Origin: Candidatus Moraniibacteriota bacterium
GTDB lineage: Bacteria > Patescibacteriota > Minisyncoccia > Moranbacterales > GWC2-37-73
Assembly: GCA_035390125.1 (NCBI GenBank)
Contig: DAOOTD010000002.1
Coordinates: 233,908-297,907, forward strand
Direction: 5' to 3'
Length of the DNA stretch: 64,000 bases
Shown: positions 36,350-59,909 of the stretch, in pieces
Layout: every line of letters starts with the position of its first letter
Numbering within the stretch: the stretch's first letter is position 1
Notes under the pieces: model-generated
Told to the model about the DNA's origin: nothing
Database searches by the model: none
Seen by the model: the letters and a program-made list of their open reading frames with translations, nothing else
Translations under genes and position numbers: made by a program

Positions 36350-37117
36350 ATGAAAAAACAAAAAGTAGCCATTGTGAGCCTGTCATCTTGTAAGGGATGT
36401 CAATTTGCTTTGCTTAATTTGGGAAAAAAATTTATTGATATCATGAAGAATGTTGAAATTGTTGATTTTGATTTGTTTAAAATTAATAGTAACTCAGAAT
36501 TAATATTGGATATAGGTTTTGTTGAAGGTAACCCAATAACGGAAGAAGATAAAAAAACACTAATATCTCTCAGGGAAAAAAGCAAAAAATTAGTTGTTTT
36601 AGGAAATTGCGGAGCAATGGGAGGAATTCCAGAAATAAAAAATTATCGTGAACAAAAACAATCAGCCAAACACTTTTATAGATATATACACGGCATAAAA
36701 GATGAGCCAATTAAAGAAATTGATAATTTTGTAAAAGTTGATTTTACTTTCCCTGGTTGTCCGATTAGCGGAGAAGAATTTCTAGAATATTTTCCAATTA
36801 TTTTAGAAAGTGCAATTTCTAGCAAAGATTTTCCAAAAATTCCGGATAAATCGGTTTGCATACAATGCAGAGCAAAAGGAAACAGGTGTTTGCTTTTAGA
36901 TAAAAAACCGTGTTTTGGTTCAATGATTTTGGGCGGTTGTGATGCTGTGTGTCCTAGCTATAATATGCCATGCCAAGGTTGTCGGGGATTGCGTCCTTCA
37001 ACTAACATAAAAGAGGTGCGTGAATCTTTAAGAAACATAATAAATGATGAAGAATTCGAAAATATATCTGAGATATATGGTTTAAGGGATGATATAGAAG
37101 CAAAGGAAAAAAAATAA
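36350..37117 (+). CDS. [NiFe]-hydrogenase small subunit (group 3-like) with extra C-terminal Fe-S cysteine clusters
   Basis: CKGCQ proximal-cluster motif, GNCGAMGG, FPGCPISGEEF, and a C-terminal CIQC...CxxC...CPSYNMPCQGC region. Confidence 0.7.
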   Translation: MKKQKVAIVSLSSCKGCQFALLNLGKKFIDIMKNVEIVDFDLFKINSNSELILDIGFVEGNPITEEDKKTLISLREKSKKLVVLGNCGAMGGIPEIKNYREQKQSAKHFYRYIHGIKDEPIKEIDNFVKVDFTFPGCPISGEEFLEYFPIILESAISSKDFPKIPDKSVCIQCRAKGNRCLLLDKKPCFGSMILGGCDAVCPSYNMPCQGCRGLRPSTNIKEVRESLRNIINDEEFENISEIYGLRDDIEAKEKK

Positions 37118-37121
37118 AAAT

Positions 37122-38384
37122 ATGTCTCTAAACATAAATTACATCGCGAATATCGAAAGTCAAACCGATATTATATCGGAAATTATTAAAGGTAATCTGA
37201 GGAGCCATAAATTGCGATTATTGAGGGATTCTCGTATTATCGAAAATGTCATAATAGGCCGGTACTACAAAGAAATGCCTACTATTGTCCAAAGAATTTG
37301 CGGAAATTGCTCAGTTTCTCATAATATGGCATCCATTAAGGCTATTGAAAAAGCCATGAAAATTGAGGTTAGTGAAGAAACAATAAAGTTTAGAAAAATT
37401 ATAGAATGTGCCCAATTTATTTATTCTCATTCTTTCAATCTTTTTATTCTGTCGGTAGTTCATTCTATGAATATTGAAAATGAATTACAATCAGCTGATG
37501 AATACAGTGAAGAAACAAAAAAAATTCAAAAAATAAGAGAATATGGAATTGAGATCATAAATTTAATAGGTGGAAGAACAATACACCCACTGACAAATGA
37601 AGTTGGGGGGTTTAAAAAAGTTCCAACAAAAAATGAAATAAAAAATCTTATATCAAAAGGAGAAGAAATACTGCCGGCAATGATAGAAATAGCTGATTTT
37701 TTTAAAAATATAAAATTGCCTAATTTTAGTCGGCCAACAGAATACATTTGTCTTAAAAGTAATGGAGAATACGCTATGTATGATGGAGACGTTGTTTCTA
37801 ATAAGGGATTATATGTAAGCAAAAATGATATTGAAAACAATTTTTATGCTTTTCACCGTCCAAAGGAAATTATTAAAAGAATCAATCCGGACAGCAAAAC
37901 GAGTTATATGGTCGGGGCTATTGCCAGGGTCAATAATAATTATGATAAGCTTTCAAATAATGCAAAAAGATATTTAGAATCATTGAATTTTAACAAAATG
38001 GACTATAATCCATTTCATAATATTTTATACAAAGCAGCTGAAATCATACATTGCATTGAGGAATCAACAAAATTATTAAGAGAAATTGCTAATGTAGACT
38101 TTACAGGTGCACTAACTAAAGAATACACTGTCCAAGAAGGTAGAGCAGCGGCAGCTATTGAAGATCCGCGAGGAACATTGTATTATTGGGTTGATATAGA
38201 TGCTAAGGGTTATATAAAAAATATTAATATTATTACGCCAACGGCGCAGTTCTTGTCTAATCTTGAAGATGATATTTCGGTTTTTATTCCTGGGATAAAA
38301 AATGTTAGTGAAAAAGAAAAAGAAAAAAAGATTCGCGCATTTATTCGGGCATATGATCCTTGCATGGGTTGCATAACGCGTTAG
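37122..38384 (+). CDS. [NiFe]-hydrogenase large subunit
   Basis: N-terminal RICGNCSVSH (RxCGxCxxxH). The C-terminus is DPCMGCITR and ends without a cleavable extension. Confidence 0.8.
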   Translation: MSLNINYIANIESQTDIISEIIKGNLRSHKLRLLRDSRIIENVIIGRYYKEMPTIVQRICGNCSVSHNMASIKAIEKAMKIEVSEETIKFRKIIECAQFIYSHSFNLFILSVVHSMNIENELQSADEYSEETKKIQKIREYGIEIINLIGGRTIHPLTNEVGGFKKVPTKNEIKNLISKGEEILPAMIEIADFFKNIKLPNFSRPTEYICLKSNGEYAMYDGDVVSNKGLYVSKNDIENNFYAFHRPKEIIKRINPDSKTSYMVGAIARVNNNYDKLSNNAKRYLESLNFNKMDYNPFHNILYKAAEIIHCIEESTKLLREIANVDFTGALTKEYTVQEGRAAAAIEDPRGTLYYWVDIDAKGYIKNINIITPTAQFLSNLEDDISVFIPGIKNVSEKEKEKKIRAFIRAYDPCMGCITR

Positions 38385-39790: not shown

Positions 39791-39864
39791 ATAATAAATT
39801 ATAATTAACTGTTTTAGAAAGATGCTATAAAAATGGCTCTTTGGTTTTGTGCTTTAATTTTTTT

Positions 39865-42180
39865 ATGTATTTAAAAAAAGTTGAAATATCAGGATTTAAA
39901 TCTTTTGCCAACAAAGTCACACTGGAATTTTTGCCAGCGGGAAATTTTAATAGTGACTCCAAAAACAAAGGCATAACTTCTATTGTCGGACCTAATGGAT
40001 CAGGAAAGTCTAATGTGGCAGATGCAATAAAATGGGCCATGGGGGAACAGTCCATGAAAACGCTTCGTGGCAAAAAATCAGAAGATGTTATTTTTGCTGG
40101 TTCGGGAACAAAAGCCAGACTGTCTAGTGCGCATGTTTCTCTTTATTTTGACAATAAAGATAAGCGTATTCCTTTGGAATTTTCTGAAGTCGAAATATCT
40201 AGGAAGATTTACCGTAGTGGAGAATCAGAATATCTTATTAATGGCAGTAAGACTCGACTTATTGATGTTGTCGATTTATTAGCCAAAGCCGGCATAGGAA
40301 AAGAAAGTTACTGTGTTATCAATCAAGGCATGTCAGATGCTTTTCTAAATGCATCTTCCATAGATAGGCGCAGTGTTCTGGAAGATGCAGCCGGAGTGAA
40401 GCAATATCAGATTAAAAAACAGCGAGCAGCTAAGAAAATTGATTGGACCAGAGAAAACATGGAAAGGGTAAGTGGGCTTATACGCGAAATAGAACCTCAT
40501 CTAAAGATGCTTAAGCGCCAGGCGCAAAAAGCCCAGCAAGGAAAAGAAATTGCAGAGAAACTCAAAGAAAGACAAAATAAACTATTTTCTTTTTTGTGGC
40601 ACCAATTTCAGTTAGAACAGGAACAATTTTCACGGGAAAAAGATAGCCTTGGAGCTTTAATGATGAATACGCAGAGGGAAGTAGATAAGATAAATGATGA
40701 ACTAAGTAAGGAATCGGCTGATGCACAGGAATCAAAAAAACAAAATGAGTTAGAGAAAAAACAGTCGGAAATAAGGCAAAAAATAAATGAAATCGAACGA
40801 GAGCTTATTATTTCAGAGGGGCGCATTGTAGTTGAAAAAGAAAAAATGGCCAGCCAAAAAATAATAGAAATTATTCCGGTTGATCTCAAATATGTTCAGG
40901 AAAAAATTAAACATATCCGTGAAGCACAGGAAAGATTGATAAAAGAAGTTGAAGGAGCAGAAAGCCTAGAAGAATTGCAAGATATTAAAGAGCATGCACG
41001 GGCTATCCAACAGCAGTTGCATGATTTATATGAAGAATCAGGAAAAGGAGAAGTTTCAGTAAAAAAGGATAATTCAAAAGAAACGCAGGAAATTCAAAAT
41101 AAAATCAACGAGTTGGAAAATAAGAAAAAAGATCTACTTAGCTCAGAAAATAAATTAAAAACCGAACTTGAAAAAACAGAAAAGGAAATAAACCAAGAAA
41201 TGCAGAAAGCAAAGGAGTTGAGAGAAAGATTTTTCCAATTAGAACGTGAATCCAGAAACAAACAGGAGCAACTTTCTGGCCTAAAAGACCAATTTAATGA
41301 AGCAAAAATAAAATTAGCTAAGATAGAGGTTCGTGAGGAGGATTTAACCAATGAAATAAAGAATTCTCTCAAACAGGATCCAGGCGAACTCAAATATGAC
41401 GGCCAATCTGTAGAAAAAGAAATATTGGAACATGAAATAGAGCGCTTGAAGATGCAAATGGAACAAATCGGAGGAATTGATCCGATGATTGTTCAGGAAT
41501 ATAACGAAACAAGTGCCCGTTTCGATTTTCTTACCCAGGAGCTCAAAGATTTGGCTGATGCTTTAATATCATTAGAAGCTGTTATAAAAGAGATGGATCA
41601 GCGTATAAATTCCGAGTTTGAAAAAGCTTTTGAACAGATCAACAAGGAATTCACAAAATATTTCCGGACTATTTTTGGAGGTGGCAATGCTTATCTGACT
41701 AAAATTAAAATTCCTCCGCGTGGCGTTTATGAAGAAAAAAATAACGAAAATCAAGAAAATATTGAAGAAGTTGAAAATGAGGAAGAAAAAAAAGAAGAAA
41801 AAAGATATGAAATTGGCATTGACATTTATGCCTGCCCTCCGGGCAAGAAAATTGCCAATCTGCCCATGCTTTCTGGTGGAGAAAGGTCTTTGACGGCTCT
41901 AGCATTATTATTTGCCGTTATCTCATATAATCCACCGCCATTCGCCATCCTGGATGAAGTTGAAGCTGCACTTGATGAAGCTAACTCCAGAAGGTTTGGA
42001 AAAATTTTGCAGGATCTTTCTGATTCGACCCAGTTTATAGCTATTACTCATAACCGCGAAACTATGCGTCAGTCAGCTCTATTATATGGTGTGACAATGG
42101 GAGAGGATGGAATTTCAAAACTGCTTTCAGTAAAGATTGACCAGGTTGATCAGAGTGGAGAAATTATTCCAAAAAAATAG
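39865..42180 (+). CDS. smc: SMC-family chromosome partition ATPase, short form without recognisable hinge
   Basis: N-terminus FKSF...GPNGSGKSN...WAMGEQS; C-terminus LSGGERSLTALALLFAV...ILDEVEAALD. Only about 770 aa, with coiled coil in between. Confidence 0.75.
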   Translation: MYLKKVEISGFKSFANKVTLEFLPAGNFNSDSKNKGITSIVGPNGSGKSNVADAIKWAMGEQSMKTLRGKKSEDVIFAGSGTKARLSSAHVSLYFDNKDKRIPLEFSEVEISRKIYRSGESEYLINGSKTRLIDVVDLLAKAGIGKESYCVINQGMSDAFLNASSIDRRSVLEDAAGVKQYQIKKQRAAKKIDWTRENMERVSGLIREIEPHLKMLKRQAQKAQQGKEIAEKLKERQNKLFSFLWHQFQLEQEQFSREKDSLGALMMNTQREVDKINDELSKESADAQESKKQNELEKKQSEIRQKINEIERELIISEGRIVVEKEKMASQKIIEIIPVDLKYVQEKIKHIREAQERLIKEVEGAESLEELQDIKEHARAIQQQLHDLYEESGKGEVSVKKDNSKETQEIQNKINELENKKKDLLSSENKLKTELEKTEKEINQEMQKAKELRERFFQLERESRNKQEQLSGLKDQFNEAKIKLAKIEVREEDLTNEIKNSLKQDPGELKYDGQSVEKEILEHEIERLKMQMEQIGGIDPMIVQEYNETSARFDFLTQELKDLADALISLEAVIKEMDQRINSEFEKAFEQINKEFTKYFRTIFGGGNAYLTKIKIPPRGVYEEKNNENQENIEEVENEEEKKEEKRYEIGIDIYACPPGKKIANLPMLSGGERSLTALALLFAVISYNPPPFAILDEVEAALDEANSRRFGKILQDLSDSTQFIAITHNRETMRQSALLYGVTMGEDGISKLLSVKIDQVDQSGEIIPKK

Positions 42181-42612: not shown

Positions 42613-42636
42613 GTCTTGAGCTTTTTGATATATACA

Positions 42637-42670
42637 AAGCCCTTATTTTCATAAGGGCTTTTGTTTTTTA
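42637..42670 (+). terminator. Rho-independent terminator after hup
   Basis: AAGCCCTTAT-tttc-ATAAGGGCTTTTGTTTTTT. Confidence 0.65.
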
Positions 42671-42762
42671 TTGTTTTTATGATATAATTTAAGCTAGAAA
42701 ATATTATTTTTTAATAATTTCAATGTAAATTTGTTTTAATAATTTTGCATTGTATTAAAAAA

Positions 42763-45141
42763 ATGAATACAAAAATCAGTTTTGTAACTTTATTTTCAGT
42801 CTTATCACTTGTTCTTGTTTGTGGAATTTTTCTTCCCATAAAAACAGTAAATGCCGCGGTTGGTTCTTTTTCTTGTTCTGATTATCAAACTGCTCCTACT
42901 GGTTCTGGCTTCGGCTATATAACGCTTTGGAATAATAAAATTACAGGAACAATAACCAGTTCTGTTAGTCCAGGAGGAACCGTAACAGTTTATTTGAAAG
43001 ATATATCCTATACGGGTACAGGCTCGCAGGAATGGCATAAACCAGTATATGGCACTATAGGTGGAGTTCAGAGATCTTTTACTGGATCAAACCAAGCAGT
43101 ACCTGGCAGTGGCTATCTTCCTTATTTTGAAAGTACTCAAACTTTTCCTGCTCCCTCTACTCCGGGAACTTATACATTACAATTAACAAGTAGCTGGGAT
43201 GGAAGAAATTTATGTTCCTGTTCTTCCTGCAGTGCTGGTACTTTTACAGTTACTGCTCCTGCCTACTGCACTTTGCCTTGGGGAGGAACAATATCAAACG
43301 GCGCCTCAGTTTATGCTTATTATTATCCTTCAGTTGCCTGTGGCTTAGATTGTGCTAATTACCGTCAGACACGAACTTGCAATAATGGAGTTTTGAGTAA
43401 TTCAAATACTTATCAAAGTTGCTATACACAGGCTTGTGCTTCATGCAGTCTCCCTTGGGGCGGAACCGTGGCTCATGGCGGTTCAGTGACTGCCTACGCT
43501 TCAGGTTCAGTTCCTTGTGGATCATCCTGCACCAGCCAGACTAGAACCTGCAGCAATGGAACACTTAGTGGTTCATATACTAATTCAAGTTGTAGTGTAG
43601 CAGCTTGTGCCTGCAATCTACCCTGGGGAGGCACATTAACTCATGGCGGTTCAGTGACTGCCTACGCTTCAGGTTCAGTTCCTTGTGGATCATCCTGCAC
43701 CAGCCAGACTAGAACCTGCAGCAATGGAACACTTAGTGGTTCATATACTAATTCAAGTTGTAGTGTAGCAGCCTGTGCTTCCTGTACTTCACCCTGGGGC
43801 ACAACTGTAGTTCATGGCAGTTCTATTACTGCTTATCTTTCCAATTCAGCTGCAACATGTACTAGTCAGACAAGGACATGCAACAATGGAACATTAAGTG
43901 GTTCATATATATACCAAACTTGTACACGTTCTTGTACTTTGCCCTGGGGCGGAACAGTGGCTAGCGGTTCTTCTTTTACTGCCTATCAATCAAGTTCAGT
44001 GCCTTATGGGTCATCCTGTGTCAGCCAGACCAGAACCTGTACTGATGGAACATTAAGTGGTTCATACTCTAATCAAACTTGCAATGTAGCAGCCCCAGCT
44101 TCATGCAGTCTCCCTTGGGGCGGAACCGTGGCTCATGGCGGTTCAGTGACTGCCTACGCTTCAGGTTCAGTTCCTTGTGGATCATCCTGCACCAGCCAGA
44201 CTAGAACCTGCAGCAATGGAACACTTAGTGGTTCATATACTAATTCAAGTTGTAGTGTAACACCCTGCCCTTGCACCTTGCCTTGGGGAGGAACCCTAGC
44301 TCACGGAAGCTCAGTAACTGCTTATTTGTCCAGTTCAGCTGTAACCTGCACCAGTCAAACAAGAACATGCAATAATGGAACACTTAGCGGTTCATATACG
44401 TATCAAAGCTGTTTACGCTCATGCGCTATACCTTGGGGCGGAACAGTAGCTAGCGGTTCTTCTTTTACTGCCTATCAATCAAATTCAGTTCCTTGTGGAT
44501 CATCCTGCACCAGCCAGACCAGAACCTGCACTAATGGAACACTAACTGGTTCATATTCCAACAGAACTTGCAGCGTAGCACCTTGTCCTTGTACTTCACC
44601 TTGGGGTACAACCGTGGCTCATGGCAGTTCTATCACTGCCTACTCCTCAAGTTCAGTAGCCTGCGGATCATCCTGTGATAGTGTCAAACAAAATAGAACC
44701 TGCACCAATGGAGTCTTGAGCGGAACAGCCACCAACCAAAACTGCAGCGTAGCACCTTGTCCCTGCACCACGCCTTGGGGCACAACTGTAGCTAGCGGCA
44801 GTTCAGTCGACGCCTATAAAGACAGCTATGCACCTTATGGATCAGAGTGTGTCAAAGAAACTAGACAATGCACGGATGGAAGCTTAAATGGTTCCTATAC
44901 CAACCAGAGCTGCTGTCAGGCAGATAACTGCGAGCAAAGAACCTGCCAAGGCAAGCAATGCAATAATGGCTGCAAGCTTATGGATGGCGTCAAAACTGAC
45001 GGTGCCTGCTGTGTCTCAAATGGTTGTGAAAAAAACACCTGCAAAGGCAAAACTTGCGATAATGGATGTATTTCTAACGCCTATGGAACCAAGAAATGTT
45101 CCGGCCCAGTAGGCCCAGGCATTTGGACGGAGATATATTAA
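42763..45141 (+). CDS. Secreted cysteine-rich tandem-repeat protein (about 10 repeats of about 47-57 aa) with a Cys-rich C-terminal domain
   Basis: Signal peptide MNTKISFVTLFSVLSLVLVCGIFLPIKTVNA. Repeats follow C-x-LPWGGTVAHGGSVTAY-x6-CGSSCTSQTRTC-x-NGTLSGSY-x4-C. The C-terminus is CCQADNCEQRTC...CKGKTCDNGC. Confidence 0.7.
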   Translation: MNTKISFVTLFSVLSLVLVCGIFLPIKTVNAAVGSFSCSDYQTAPTGSGFGYITLWNNKITGTITSSVSPGGTVTVYLKDISYTGTGSQEWHKPVYGTIGGVQRSFTGSNQAVPGSGYLPYFESTQTFPAPSTPGTYTLQLTSSWDGRNLCSCSSCSAGTFTVTAPAYCTLPWGGTISNGASVYAYYYPSVACGLDCANYRQTRTCNNGVLSNSNTYQSCYTQACASCSLPWGGTVAHGGSVTAYASGSVPCGSSCTSQTRTCSNGTLSGSYTNSSCSVAACACNLPWGGTLTHGGSVTAYASGSVPCGSSCTSQTRTCSNGTLSGSYTNSSCSVAACASCTSPWGTTVVHGSSITAYLSNSAATCTSQTRTCNNGTLSGSYIYQTCTRSCTLPWGGTVASGSSFTAYQSSSVPYGSSCVSQTRTCTDGTLSGSYSNQTCNVAAPASCSLPWGGTVAHGGSVTAYASGSVPCGSSCTSQTRTCSNGTLSGSYTNSSCSVTPCPCTLPWGGTLAHGSSVTAYLSSSAVTCTSQTRTCNNGTLSGSYTYQSCLRSCAIPWGGTVASGSSFTAYQSNSVPCGSSCTSQTRTCTNGTLTGSYSNRTCSVAPCPCTSPWGTTVAHGSSITAYSSSSVACGSSCDSVKQNRTCTNGVLSGTATNQNCSVAPCPCTTPWGTTVASGSSVDAYKDSYAPYGSECVKETRQCTDGSLNGSYTNQSCCQADNCEQRTCQGKQCNNGCKLMDGVKTDGACCVSNGCEKNTCKGKTCDNGCISNAYGTKKCSGPVGPGIWTEIY
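43260..44890 (+). repeat. Coding tandem repeat array with nucleotide-identical blocks
   Basis: Blocks of about 130-160 nt occur at about 43441-43600, 43630-43760 and 44101-44260 and read identical or near-identical. Confidence 0.8.
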
Positions 45142-45213: not shown

Positions 45214-45768
45214 ATGAAAAAAATTATTATCTCAATTTTTTTATTAACGGGAGGAATGGTTGTTTTATCAGGCTGTTCTCAGTATCAAACAAGCCAAAAT
45301 AATCAGGCAACAAAAATAATTTCTGAAAAATCAAAAGTTAATCAGGCATCTGAAGCAGAAGGCTATCTGGTTGTTGATGAAATAAAAATAAAGCTGCCTC
45401 CTGATTGGAAAATAGAGAAAAAAGAATCAGATAAAATTTATATAAAAGATAATAAATTGGAAACAGAATATAACACGCTCCTTACTGTTAAATTTGAAAA
45501 GAATCCTCCGGCTATGCTCGATGATTACAAAAATGGAAAAAATATCGGATTCGATAACATGAAAGATGAAAAAAATGAAATATTCAAAAATGCTTGTTCT
45601 GGAATTGCTTGTAATGGAATTATTTCTGATGGTAATATTTACTACCTTGTTTGGGCAGTGGAAACCGATCAACCTGCTCCTGAAAATCTAAAAGGGAGTT
45701 GGGAACCAGAGCATCATTTCAACACGGATAACATCTGGGAAATGCTTAAAAATATAATCGTTCAATAA
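45214..45768 (+). CDS. Hypothetical lipoprotein
   Basis: Signal peptide plus lipobox LSGC; downstream of the repeat protein. Confidence 0.55.
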   Translation: MKKIIISIFLLTGGMVVLSGCSQYQTSQNNQATKIISEKSKVNQASEAEGYLVVDEIKIKLPPDWKIEKKESDKIYIKDNKLETEYNTLLTVKFEKNPPAMLDDYKNGKNIGFDNMKDEKNEIFKNACSGIACNGIISDGNIYYLVWAVETDQPAPENLKGSWEPEHHFNTDNIWEMLKNIIVQ

Positions 45769-51728: not shown

Positions 51729-52388
51729 TTATTTTTTAAAAACCCAGAGCTTATAGCCAATAAAATTCCAGACTAATCCAGCGATGCTTCCGAATGCGGC
51801 TCCTATCAATCCAAGTTGGTCAGAAGAAAGACCAACTAATGAACCTATTATTATCTTAAAAACTATAGAGGCCACAAAAACATTAATCAAGAATCCAATA
51901 ATACTAACTGCAAAAAATTGTATAAATTCCGAGCGTGTTTGTTTTTTGTTTTGCTGCTCAAAGGTCCAATATTTATTCCAAAAATAACTATTAATATTTG
52001 CAATTATAAATGAAATAGATTTATAAAGTGAATAGAAAGTTATAGCTCCAATAAGAGATGTTTTTGAATCAATGTTTAAAAACAATCTAAAAGCAAACGT
52101 CAAAAGTGCGAGAAATCCAATATCTACCAGTGTGTTCAAAATTCCTATGAGTCCGAATTTTGCAATTTGATAGATAATGGGTATTTTTTTTCCTATAAAA
52201 AAAGCTATCCGAAGACCTATGGGTGTGGCTAAAAGAAAAAAGGGGATTATAACTAGGGCAAATTTTGAATAAATATAGGGGTTGGCGGCTTTGAGTATTG
52301 GAAGAAATAATAATCCTATAAACAAACCAGCGACTAAGGCTAATTTATAATCTCTTTGCGTTATCCTGATTTTGTTTGGTTTTTTCAT
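51729..52388 (-). CDS. GtrA-family membrane protein (polyprenol-phosphate-sugar flippase-like) with N-terminal 2-TM extension
   Basis: C-terminal LVWNFIGYKLWVFKK; GtrA-like 4-TM core. Confidence 0.55.
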   Translation of the reverse strand: MKKPNKIRITQRDYKLALVAGLFIGLLFLPILKAANPYIYSKFALVIIPFFLLATPIGLRIAFFIGKKIPIIYQIAKFGLIGILNTLVDIGFLALLTFAFRLFLNIDSKTSLIGAITFYSLYKSISFIIANINSYFWNKYWTFEQQNKKQTRSEFIQFFAVSIIGFLINVFVASIVFKIIIGSLVGLSSDQLGLIGAAFGSIAGLVWNFIGYKLWVFKK

Positions 52389-58424: not shown

Positions 58425-59909
58425 TTATAGATAGTATCTGAAAATTATATTGTTAAAAATTATATATAGCATGAATGTCATCATCAGAACCAGGCCAATA
58501 ATAAGAGAATATTCAAAATATTTTTGTCCATTAGAGGCTGATCCGTCTCGGGCGAATATTTTCTCCAGAAGAATTCCAAGTCCAGTGAAAACTAAAATAA
58601 TATGCGAGGTCAGATTCGGGATGAAATATCTTCCGGGAGTTCCAGTTTCAATGTGGCCATCATTATTATGAAAAAACATCCAATCGGCAAATCTTATTCC
58701 AAGCTGAAGCAATGCGAGCATTATTAAGAGAAAAACAATGTATTTTTTTTCAGGCAGATGTGAAAACTTTTTTTTCGAAAAGATAAAAAATGCAATTCCG
58801 ACAGCCGCAATAGCCTGGATAAGCCAGATTATATTGGTTCCATTACTGATACCCCAATTTTTTGTCCATGACAACATGCCCCAATAAGTCCTTGATGACA
58901 AGCCAAATCTGCCTATGGTAAGAGTTTTTGACAAATAATCCTTTACAGAAATAAATAGGTTGCAAATATTGGATATATTGTCAGGAAGATATTTTTTAAA
59001 ATAAATCAGAAGAGAAGCTGTTATGCAGGCAAAAATAAAAAGTGCGATATATTTTATTTTTCTGTTTTTATTCTTTACTTTTTCGTATAAAAAATACATA
59101 AACAACAGGGCAGCTCCTATCAAAAGAACAGATGCGGTCGGTTTAGTCAAAATTCCCAAAAAAACCGAAACAATAATCAGGAAAATATTTTTCCAATTCG
59201 GTCCGTTTTTCAGAGCCAAGATGCCTCCGAGTGTAAAAAGTGCAAACGTCAAAATCAGCAAAGCATCAGAATTTATGGTTGCATAATAGATCGAAAATCT
59301 TGGCTGGAAAGAAACAATAGCTGTCAAAAGCAAACTGTTTTTTGCGGAAAAACCGATATTTTTCGCAATTAAATAAGAAAATAAAATAAAAAGTGTTCCC
59401 AAAAAAACTGAAAAAATTCTAATCAGGTAATAACGGACAAGAATATTTTGATTGCCGAAACTTTTTTCTATGACGGTCAACAGGTTATGATATATTGATT
59501 TTTTGCCTACTTTGTTTGGAGGATAATATTCATTGTATTGATGCCAATCATTATTGATTATCTTATATTCATTTTTTCCATCATGGCCTTGGATAAAAGA
59601 AAAGGTATTGTAAAGATATTCAGTTGCATTGTCATAATCGATAGCCTTAGCTGTTTCTAATACTTCCTGAGAATAATTAAATTTTTGGATTGAATTTTTG
59701 TCTTCTACTTTTCTTTCAACAATAGGCCAAGTTACAGGTCGCTGTTCTGATAGATACTGGATGCTACTGTAATGCCTGGCTTCGTCTTGACCAACAAAAA
59801 TAGGCGTTATGGATGCCAAAAAAACACCTTTCAGAAAAAAGATAGTCAAAATAAGCGCTAAAATAGAAACTGGTTTCTTGAAAAAGGCAAAAAATTGAAA
59901 TTTTTCCAT
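58425..59909 (-). CDS. GT-C fold membrane glycosyltransferase (ArnT/PMT-like, GT39/GT83-type)
   Basis: Polytopic protein. The first extracytoplasmic loop carries the VGQDEARHY DE motif typical of GT-C enzymes. Confidence 0.55.
   Translation of the reverse strand: MEKFQFFAFFKKPVSILALILTIFFLKGVFLASITPIFVGQDEARHYSSIQYLSEQRPVTWPIVERKVEDKNSIQKFNYSQEVLETAKAIDYDNATEYLYNTFSFIQGHDGKNEYKIINNDWHQYNEYYPPNKVGKKSIYHNLLTVIEKSFGNQNILVRYYLIRIFSVFLGTLFILFSYLIAKNIGFSAKNSLLLTAIVSFQPRFSIYYATINSDALLILTFALFTLGGILALKNGPNWKNIFLIIVSVFLGILTKPTASVLLIGAALLFMYFLYEKVKNKNRKIKYIALFIFACITASLLIYFKKYLPDNISNICNLFISVKDYLSKTLTIGRFGLSSRTYWGMLSWTKNWGISNGTNIIWLIQAIAAVGIAFFIFSKKKFSHLPEKKYIVFLLIMLALLQLGIRFADWMFFHNNDGHIETGTPGRYFIPNLTSHIILVFTGLGILLEKIFARDGSASNGQKYFEYSLIIGLVLMMTFMLYIIFNNIIFRYYL

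Follow-up and report, generated by a model that had tools for sequence, protein, structure and literature searches.

Several described systems bear on the protein considered here. The stalk proteins of Gram-positive bacteria, such as alpha C and Rib of group B streptococci and the G5-E proteins SasG/Aap, carry repeats that are identical at the nucleotide level. Among small modules, the fibronectin type I (FnI) "finger" modules of fibronectin, tPA and factor XII, along with the FnI-like subdomain of VWC, are among the closest known systems, and the Myxococcus cysteine-rich repeat (TIGR02232/DUF4215) is a further bacterial, extracellular, Cys-rich tandem repeat of ~40-50 amino acids (aa), scattered among lineages that include deltaproteobacterial ones. 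In the 64,000-nucleotide (nt) stretch of contig DAOOTD010000002.1 from Candidatus Moraniibacteriota that was analyzed here (hereafter, the window), one open reading frame (ORF) on the forward strand encodes a protein that consists, in this order, of a signal peptide, a ~137-aa N-terminal region, ten tandem Cys-rich units and a 75-aa Cys-rich tail (Table 1). The source is Candidatus Moranbacteria, a bacterium of the candidate phyla radiation (CPR, or Patescibacteria), under whose name the L10, L7/L12, S16 and HU proteins are found in NCBI, in agreement with the reduced-genome host surmised in a preliminary description of this locus.

The two NCBI records of the protein (HRZ33352.1 and HOW60761.1) are both labeled "hypothetical protein". 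Its composition is unusual, with 69 Cys (8.7%), 135 Ser and 111 Thr residues (Ser and Thr jointly 31%), compared with a Cys content of 0-4.7% in all other ORFs of at least 120 aa in the window. The epithet "giant" that had been attached to it is overstated, given that the window contains three other ORFs of 729-844 aa.

The repeat is a module that appears undescribed. A profile of the unit, built in part from the window's own units, recovers precisely ten copies in a six-frame search of the whole window, with E-values from 1e-20 to 1e-29 and none elsewhere; from start to start, units 1-9 measure 50-59 aa. The initial view of a (putatively) secreted, Cys-rich protein with ten tandem units holds. 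At the nucleotide level, Tandem Repeats Finder detects two periodicities, one of 168 with 7.5 copies and a higher-order one of 489 with 2.4 copies and 81% matches. Outside the window, the units belong to a large, real and unannotated prokaryotic family for which we found neither a model in Pfam or NCBIfam nor a solved structure; no paper describes it among those located by literature searches, which covered the motif, repeat proteins of Bdellovibrio or Moranbacteria and the "SPM domain" and returned nothing relevant. A search with the full protein yielded more than 1,232 homologues, none of them with a name other than "hypothetical", and hardly any has a precomputed Pfam domain over the array; the 120 homologues listed contain 4-15 units each. 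An exhaustive profile search of 1.84 billion representatives recovered 3,747 clusters at E<=1e-3, 2,587 at E<=1e-10 and 964 at E<=1e-30. Across 231 proteins, 1,977 units were counted, with a median of 8 and a maximum of 42 per protein, and the profile search matched 43 stretches in one homologue (P0121). By a crude test, 150 of the 221 complete-looking homologues start with a hydrophobic leader. All ten units of the window match the profile of this unnamed family and retain its invariant residues, and a match to a well-characterized bacterial repeat family, which would have pointed to an unrelated function, did not turn up.

The family consensus reads C-x-[LF]-[PN]-[WG]-G...HG-x-S-x-x-A-[YF]...C-x-S-[QE]-x-R-x-C-x-N-G-x-L-S-G...C, with conservation at C1, G6, G12, A17, Y/F18, C29, R34, C36, G39, L41, G43 and C50, and with the core cysteines spaced C1-x27-C29-x6-C36-x13-C50. 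Two further cysteines are optional, one at position 25 and the other, in the linker, close to position 55. Among 1,003 units, both are present in 123, neither in 859 and only one in 21, a co-occurrence that argues for a third disulfide joining Cys25 to the linker Cys. In the window, the pair is present in units 1, 2, 3, 6, 8 and 9 and absent from units 4, 5, 7 and 10. The pairing of the core cysteines was sought from rare Cys losses, where no pattern of co-loss appeared. The AlphaFold2 model of unit 6, computed from an alignment of 71 sequences, has a mean predicted local distance difference test score (pLDDT) of 96.2, with all 56 residues at 90 or above, and contains main beta-strands at positions 14-18 and 31-37 along with short beta-bridges, from which we infer a small disulfide-rich module built around a beta-sheet. 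A Foldseek comparison of this model with the PDB produced no match at E<=0.001, the top TM-score being 0.43, to domain V of beta2-glycoprotein I, and no significant match came from sequence searches of the PDB, for which the profile, the full protein and the tail served as queries. Cyanovirin-N matches that surfaced in these sequence searches (E from 2.9 to 6.1) were dismissed as chance.

The units had originally been described as similar to thrombospondin type-1 repeats (TSRs), and the similarity is easy to see. The segment C-GSS-C-TSQTRT-C recalls CSVTCGGGVQxRxRxC; the TSP_1/TSP1_ADAMTS domains, which are likewise extracellular, Cys-rich and tandem, share with the units the C-x3-C...QTRTC pattern and the C-x4-C-P ending; and hhalign aligns 26 columns of the unit to TSR3 of human TSP1, in a sequence entered by hand. 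Furthermore, Arg34 is conserved in 95% of 1,940 distinct family units, whatever residue fills the Trp column, and two homologues, P0025 and P0055, combine an array with a true TSP1_ADAMTS domain. Taken at face value, this would make the units divergent TSRs with a Trp-Arg layered three-strand fold, homologous to those of animals and apicomplexans, a proposition that we consider highly improbable. Pfam-A, which includes the TSP_1 (PF00090) and TSP1_ADAMTS (PF19030) models, detects zero families at E<=10 in the whole protein, 71 single units scanned separately show no consistent family and no TSP1 match, and NCBIfam returns noise only. The hhalign probability for the unit alignment is 0.4% against the bacterial TSP1 domain of P0025 and 9.9% against TSR2-3 of human TSP1 (the same hand-entered sequence). 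The Pfam TSP1_ADAMTS match in P0025 (31.2 bits) covers residues 598-654, after the array, which stops at residue 595, and not within it; in P0055, the layout is the same, with the domain at residues 817-867 and a score of 23.3 bits, just under the cutoff. The Trp column contains Trp in just 19% of the 1,940 units and Asn in 50%, and the window units possess a single Trp and a single Arg each, unlike the WxxW and RxR ladders of TSRs; hidden Markov model (HMM), profile-profile and fold tests all fail, with no similarity of fold to solved TSR structures. Under a sequence alignment, the co-occurrence of Cys25 with Cys55 is also at odds with the C1-C5/C2-C6 scheme of TSRs. Because Trp is subtype-specific while Arg34 is largely constant, and because the profile tests failed, the TSP1 resemblance is a local pattern, and a relationship is unsupported by any test run.

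The domains that accompany the arrays in homologous proteins include He_PIG Ig, RCC1 and SBBP propellers, fn3, Laminin_G_3, collagen, PG_binding_1, an N_methyl prepilin leader and TSP1_ADAMTS. This repertoire is extracellular throughout and fits the array as a putative spacer for varied binding heads. Homologue P0055 combines a prepilin N-methylation leader with the bacterial TSP1 domain that follows its array. Within the same candidate phylum, another contig of Candidatus Moraniibacteriota (L007, 2404-4317) encodes a 637-aa protein that begins with a hydrophobic pilin-like N-terminus, has two PWGG-type units besides other segments with Cys, and closes with a long Gly-rich domain; it thus arranges the same unit in a different architecture. 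When genomes were scanned with a narrow PWGG-type alignment, by which the list of taxa is biased to the PWGG subtype, unit-bearing Patescibacteria comprised Parcubacteria, Moraniibacteriota, Kaiserbacteria, Paceibacterota, Saccharibacteria and Peribacteria, and the unit was also found in Bdellovibrionales, Micavibrio, SAR324, Omnitrophota, one Woesearchaeota bin, and Allochromatium, Hyphomonas and other proteobacteria. The resulting distribution is patchy, and episymbiotic and predatory lineages are prominent in it, by listing rather than by an enrichment statistic.

Within the array, three units stand apart. Exact repeats link positions 43438-43599 with 44098-44259 (162 nt), 43472-43604 with 43640-43772 (133 nt) and 43640-43767 with 44132-44259 (128 nt), in agreement with the ~130-160 nt of identity reported for three repeats, and the whole-length identity among units 2, 3 and 6 is 92-96%, compared with 56-82% for other unit pairs. 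Blocks of this kind would be substrates for gene conversion and unequal crossover. Comparison with an orthologous contig from a different sample (L001; ERZ2648158 NODE_2008, 2.7x coverage) supports the concerted evolution that had been proposed for these units. By blastn, this contig is 97.2% identical to the window over 9.6 kb upstream, where colinearity ends at 42688, and 98.1% identical over 43432-45131. The ortholog contains ten units that correspond one-to-one to those of the window, units 2-10 being 96-99% identical. Across the 128-nt core of units 2, 3 and 6, 0-1 sites separate the paralogues of one genome, compared with 4-5 sites between orthologues, and four substitutions relative to L001 recur in all three units (43513/15/18/42, those positions +168, and those +660). 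Paralogues that are more alike than orthologues carry the signature of concerted evolution.

Two closer relatives, GCA_022709545.1 (L030) and JGI 3300025715 (L029), differ from the window by 14 single-nucleotide polymorphisms (SNPs) in the gene (44173-45058), 12 of them synonymous, and by none in 5.9 kb of flanks (Fisher p=2.5e-8). At two of the SNPs, 44173 and 44178, unit 6 of L030 and L029 departs from units 2 and 3, such that unit 6 of the window has the look of a recent conversion. Of the 12 sites that lie outside unit 6, the window and L001 agree with one another at 11, where L030 and L029 have a different base, and this suggests that a tract in L030 and L029 was imported from a third lineage. 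One independent assembly, L029, contains a 9-unit allele that lacks exactly 168 nt, the deletion falling inside the block common to units 2 and 3; a change of unit number by recombination, as anticipated from the repeats, accordingly appears likely.

The most conspicuous difference between close strains lies at the 5' end of the gene. From the leader through the signal peptide and N-terminal domain to unit 1, blastn detects no similarity to L001, despite flanks that are 97-98% identical; the N-terminal domains are 41% identical as proteins. The first units of the two genes share 65% identity, and that of the ortholog resembles units 5 and 8 instead. The breakpoints of this replaced cassette lie just past a -10-like box and at the array edge. 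The N-terminal domain itself is all-beta and, as modeled, is probably an Ig-like beta-sandwich, a variable "head"; Pfam and NCBIfam searches with it gave nothing meaningful. Searches for relatives of the head and of the tail drew blanks; among them, a word-indexed search with the N-terminal 138 aa or the C-terminal 77 aa missed the parent protein, which makes its blanks uninformative.

All the sequences compared are short-read metagenome assemblies, and this raises the question whether the perfect identity of units 2, 3 and 6, the parallel substitutions and the 9-unit allele might be products of assembly, through reuse of repeat edges, bubble popping or collapse. The exact blocks of 128-162 nt equal or exceed typical k-mers and reads. 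The flanks of the window and L030 are identical and two sites of unit 6 differ, which bubble popping could cause. The low-coverage L001 contig has several genes that are split or shortened relative to the window (TIM in two ORFs, hydrogenase large subunit of 299 vs 420 aa, HU of 41 vs 93 aa, ArgRS and IleRS split); errors of sequencing or assembly are the probable cause, and single-base differences to L001 accordingly need caution. Such an origin is nevertheless rather unlikely: at least four independent assemblies agree on the 10-unit order (ENA contigs of 313,947 bp and 352,663 bp, GCA_022709545.1 and a 375,607-bp contig), L030 resolves copy-specific SNPs, so the copies are distinguishable, the 92-97% whole-unit identity includes distinctly assembled, unit-specific 5' ends and linkers, and the one-to-one correspondence of units is kept in the ortholog.

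Taken together, these observations lead us to favor, by a modest degree of confidence, the interpretation that the protein is a Sec-exported, disulfide-stabilized, modular extracellular protein that combines a stalk with a variable head and a recombining array, with a likely role in attachment or recognition. The ten ~56-aa units would form an elongated, disulfide-stapled stalk, with the array as a stiff spacer that presents the N-terminal beta-sandwich head and ends in the unique Cys-rich tail. Intragenic recombination alters the array, in which three units are homogenized and of which an allele one unit shorter exists, and the 5' cassette with the head is exchanged between near-identical genomes, one breakpoint falling at the array edge. 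The head would be the specificity determinant, and the protein would most likely serve contact with, or recognition of, another cell or surface. The features expected of an adhesin include a predicted export signal, a tandem stalk and a distinct terminal domain, all present here, and a cell anchor, which is absent; a role as an adhesin or host-interaction factor, as previously suggested, is a reasonable inference.

The same architecture and export signal would also be expected of a structural component of the envelope or matrix, for example, an S-layer-associated fiber, a sheath or a biofilm scaffold, that has no specific partner and varies under pressure from phages or grazers. The gene is a variation hotspot, one homologue carries PG_binding_1, and the Ser/Thr share of 31% could be viewed together with the PMT-like and GtrA glycosylation genes of the window, but the protein has no SLH, cell-wall-binding or anchor domain and is present in a single copy in the window, and the diversity of binding-type heads in the family (lectin-like domains, propellers, pilin leaders) fits recognition better than bulk structure. 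We consider a purely structural role unlikely, if worth keeping in mind. The glycosylation-related genes are a GtrA-like gene at 51729-52388 (-) and a gene for a membrane protein of the protein O-mannosyltransferase (PMT-like) family at 58425-59909 (-). The protein contains 15 N-x-S/T sequons, and glycosylation of the stalk is conceivable.

Several observations weigh against the attachment interpretation. No cell anchor is found in the protein, be it LPXTG, a C-terminal transmembrane segment, a lipobox, SLH or a cell-wall-binding domain, and it could, therefore, be released rather than displayed. The model of the head is of low confidence (pLDDT 62), and only two head alleles are available. 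There is no conserved neighboring partner gene, synteny with L001 ending at the stop codon. The family is also present in free-living-looking taxa (Allochromatium and Hyphomonas), which speaks against taking a tie to episymbiosis or predation for granted. Finally, simplification of the de Bruijn graph could account for part of the identity of units 2, 3 and 6 and for the 9-unit allele; L001 has a coverage of only 2.7x.

The first of these points leads to another possibility, namely, that the protein leaves the cell and acts at a distance as a soluble factor, for example, as a lectin, an inhibitor or a scaffold for toxin delivery. Once the signal peptide is removed, neither end has an anchor motif, stable secreted proteins typically have small disulfide-rich modules, and there is a non-significant similarity to cyanovirin-N (E 2.9) and to Sushi/FnI binding modules. 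Yet no enzymatic or toxin domain was detected in the protein, the cyanovirin match lacks significance, and arrays as long as 4-43 units are found more typically in spacers than in soluble effectors, which makes this possibility distinctly unlikely.

The tail of the protein, the second Cys-rich module noted at the outset, indeed forms the C-terminus, as two half-repeats with the pattern CC-x4-C-x4-C-x4-C-x3-C. Among the 231 family proteins, it occurs in P0001 and P0002 only, and neither Pfam nor the PDB contains a match to it. At the other end, the signal peptide and its cut site were read by eye from the sequence and are best regarded as putative.

The upstream HU gene is closed by a hairpin resembling an intrinsic terminator, of which L001 has a homologous copy, and this implies a transcription start of the repeat protein gene's own. 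Conservation with the L001 locus extends as far as the extended -10-like box downstream of the hairpin, a promoter element by inference, and is lost after it. On the other side, no terminator-like site on the + strand lies between the repeat protein gene and the lipoprotein gene that follows, so the two may be co-transcribed. The presence of this lipoprotein gene, with its lipobox LSGC, was correctly reported, but its adjacency is not conserved: in L001, an arginyl-tRNA synthetase gene occupies its place, and the lipoprotein was accordingly rejected as a functional partner. Synteny with L001 stops exactly at the stop codon (45141/45142; L001 from 12374 onward), and 8.6 kb downstream of the ortholog have no blastn match anywhere in the 64-kb window.

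The GC content of the gene, 45% versus 34%, might suggest horizontal transfer. This was rejected because the excess resides at codon positions 1 and 2, where GC is 0.52, driven by Gly, Ala, Cys, Ser and Thr, and GC at codon position 3 (GC3), at 0.315, is barely above the 0.20-0.30 of neighboring genes; the excess at codon positions 1 and 2 reflects amino-acid composition and gives no clear sign of recent transfer.

Elsewhere in the window, a NiFe hydrogenase is encoded at 36350-38384 between glycolytic genes (aldolase, TIM, GAPDH); its small- and large-subunit genes were assigned through Pfam marks on the syntenic L001 genes, and the small subunit contains 4.7% Cys. The region 39841-42180 encodes an SMC_N-family protein of 779 aa (771 aa in the gene calls of relatives), which is short for a bacterial SMC.

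Table 1. Features of the repeat protein gene and its surroundings, in positions of the window
Feature	Position	Strand	Details
Terminator-like hairpin closing upstream HU gene	42636..42661	+	11-bp stem, then T-run
Extended -10-like box	42680..42688	+	TGATATAAT; putative promoter element
Replaced 5' cassette	42689..43431	+	Leader, signal peptide, N-terminal domain, unit 1
Repeat protein ORF, from TTG	42745..45141	+	798 aa counted from TTG start
Repeat protein ORF, from ATG 42763	42763-45141	+	792 aa; start chosen in two NCBI records
Sec-type signal peptide (predicted)	42763..42855	+	MNTKISFVTLFSVLSLVLVCGIFLPIKTVNA; predicted cut after VNA
N-terminal all-beta domain (putative head)	42856..43266	+	~137 aa
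Repeat unit 1	43267..43443	+	59 aa; most divergent; part of replaced 5' cassette
Repeat unit 2	43444..43611	+	56 aa, type A, six Cys
Segment missing from 9-unit allele	43472..43639	+	168 nt (one unit); L029, protein P0237, 736 aa
Repeat unit 3	43612..43782	+	57 aa, type A
Repeat unit 4	43783..43932	+	50 aa; short type without optional Cys pair
Repeat unit 5	43933..44103	+	57 aa; Tyr at optional Cys25 position, without linker Cys
Repeat unit 6	44104..44271	+	56 aa, type A; unit modeled by AlphaFold2
Repeat unit 7	44272..44421	+	50 aa, short type
Repeat unit 8	44422..44589	+	56 aa
Repeat unit 9	44590..44763	+	58 aa
Repeat unit 10	44764..44913	+	50 aa to last core Cys
C-terminal Cys-rich module	44914..45138	+	Half-repeats 44914-44973 and 45007-45069 (20-21 aa); 23-aa tail ending IWTEIY
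Downstream lipoprotein gene	45214..45768	+	Lipobox LSGC; weak PsbP_2 match, 28.2 bits vs cutoff 27

Apart from type IV pili, the mechanisms of host recognition in CPR/Patescibacteria are largely unknown (PMC12206443). The present analysis supplies a well-predicted domain family that is unnamed in current libraries, together with a ready seed alignment, and reveals a recurring fusion of unit arrays to extracellular binding heads and pilin leaders. Strain-level recombination within one gene marks the N-terminal head as a likely specificity element, the cassette-like replacement of the head being a useful pointer to function, and the protein becomes a testable candidate for surface interaction. 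At the same time, a tempting "eukaryote-like TSP1" annotation is corrected. More speculatively, the unit could be an ancient, undescribed prokaryotic disulfide-rich fold, possibly a deep relative of FnI, VWC and Sushi, that forms the stalk of host-attachment fibers and pilus-tip proteins in episymbionts and predators (CPR, DPANN, Bdellovibrionota, Micavibrio, Omnitrophota), with the array in the present gene as a homology anchor for swaps of head cassettes between strains; all these propositions jointly amount to a long shot.

How, then, does the module compare with what is already known? It may be placed in the same general class as FnI and Sushi, assigned to neither. The adjacent C-x-C of FnI, in which the disulfides run 1-3/2-4, is not accommodated by the core spacing of the units, and the fn1 and FnI_RECK HMMs have no match in the protein; in two homologues, partial FnI_RECK matches stay below threshold (P0050, 27.8 bits vs a cutoff of 30; P0112, E 0.0098). 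Sushi (CCP/SCR) domains have a conserved Trp between Cys3 and Cys4 that is absent here, the only conserved Trp of the unit coming after Cys1. The Sushi HMM does not match the protein, one of the 71 units touches Sushi_2 (E 0.047), and the structural scores are very weak. The motif of the Myxococcus cysteine-rich repeat differs from that of the unit, and the protein has no match to that repeat in NCBIfam or Pfam. A precomputed match to PF26745 ("SPM"), which our local copy of Pfam did not reproduce, is recorded on five Bdellovibrio-type members (P0037, P0068, P0082, P0090 and P0112). As a name for the repeat, it was rejected, given that all proteins with this match extend by at least ~200 aa at the C-terminus and that the other 115 lack it; it probably corresponds to a C-terminal domain of 200-290 aa and not to the repeat.

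As a kind of protein, in contrast to its module, the product of this gene is not new: secreted tandem-repeat proteins with homogenized repeats are already known, and no principle is overturned. The stalks with which we began, alpha C/Rib and SasG/Aap, to which we compare it on the strength of established knowledge rather than of a test, differ from it in their unrelated fold, the lack of disulfides and the LPXTG anchors, which the protein of the window does not have, and only three of its ten units are homogenized. What it shares with them is the overall plan, that is, a signal peptide and a variable N-terminal region, followed by tandem small beta modules, identical or near-identical in DNA, the number of which shifts by recombination, in an array that serves as a spacer in those proteins and would do so in this one.

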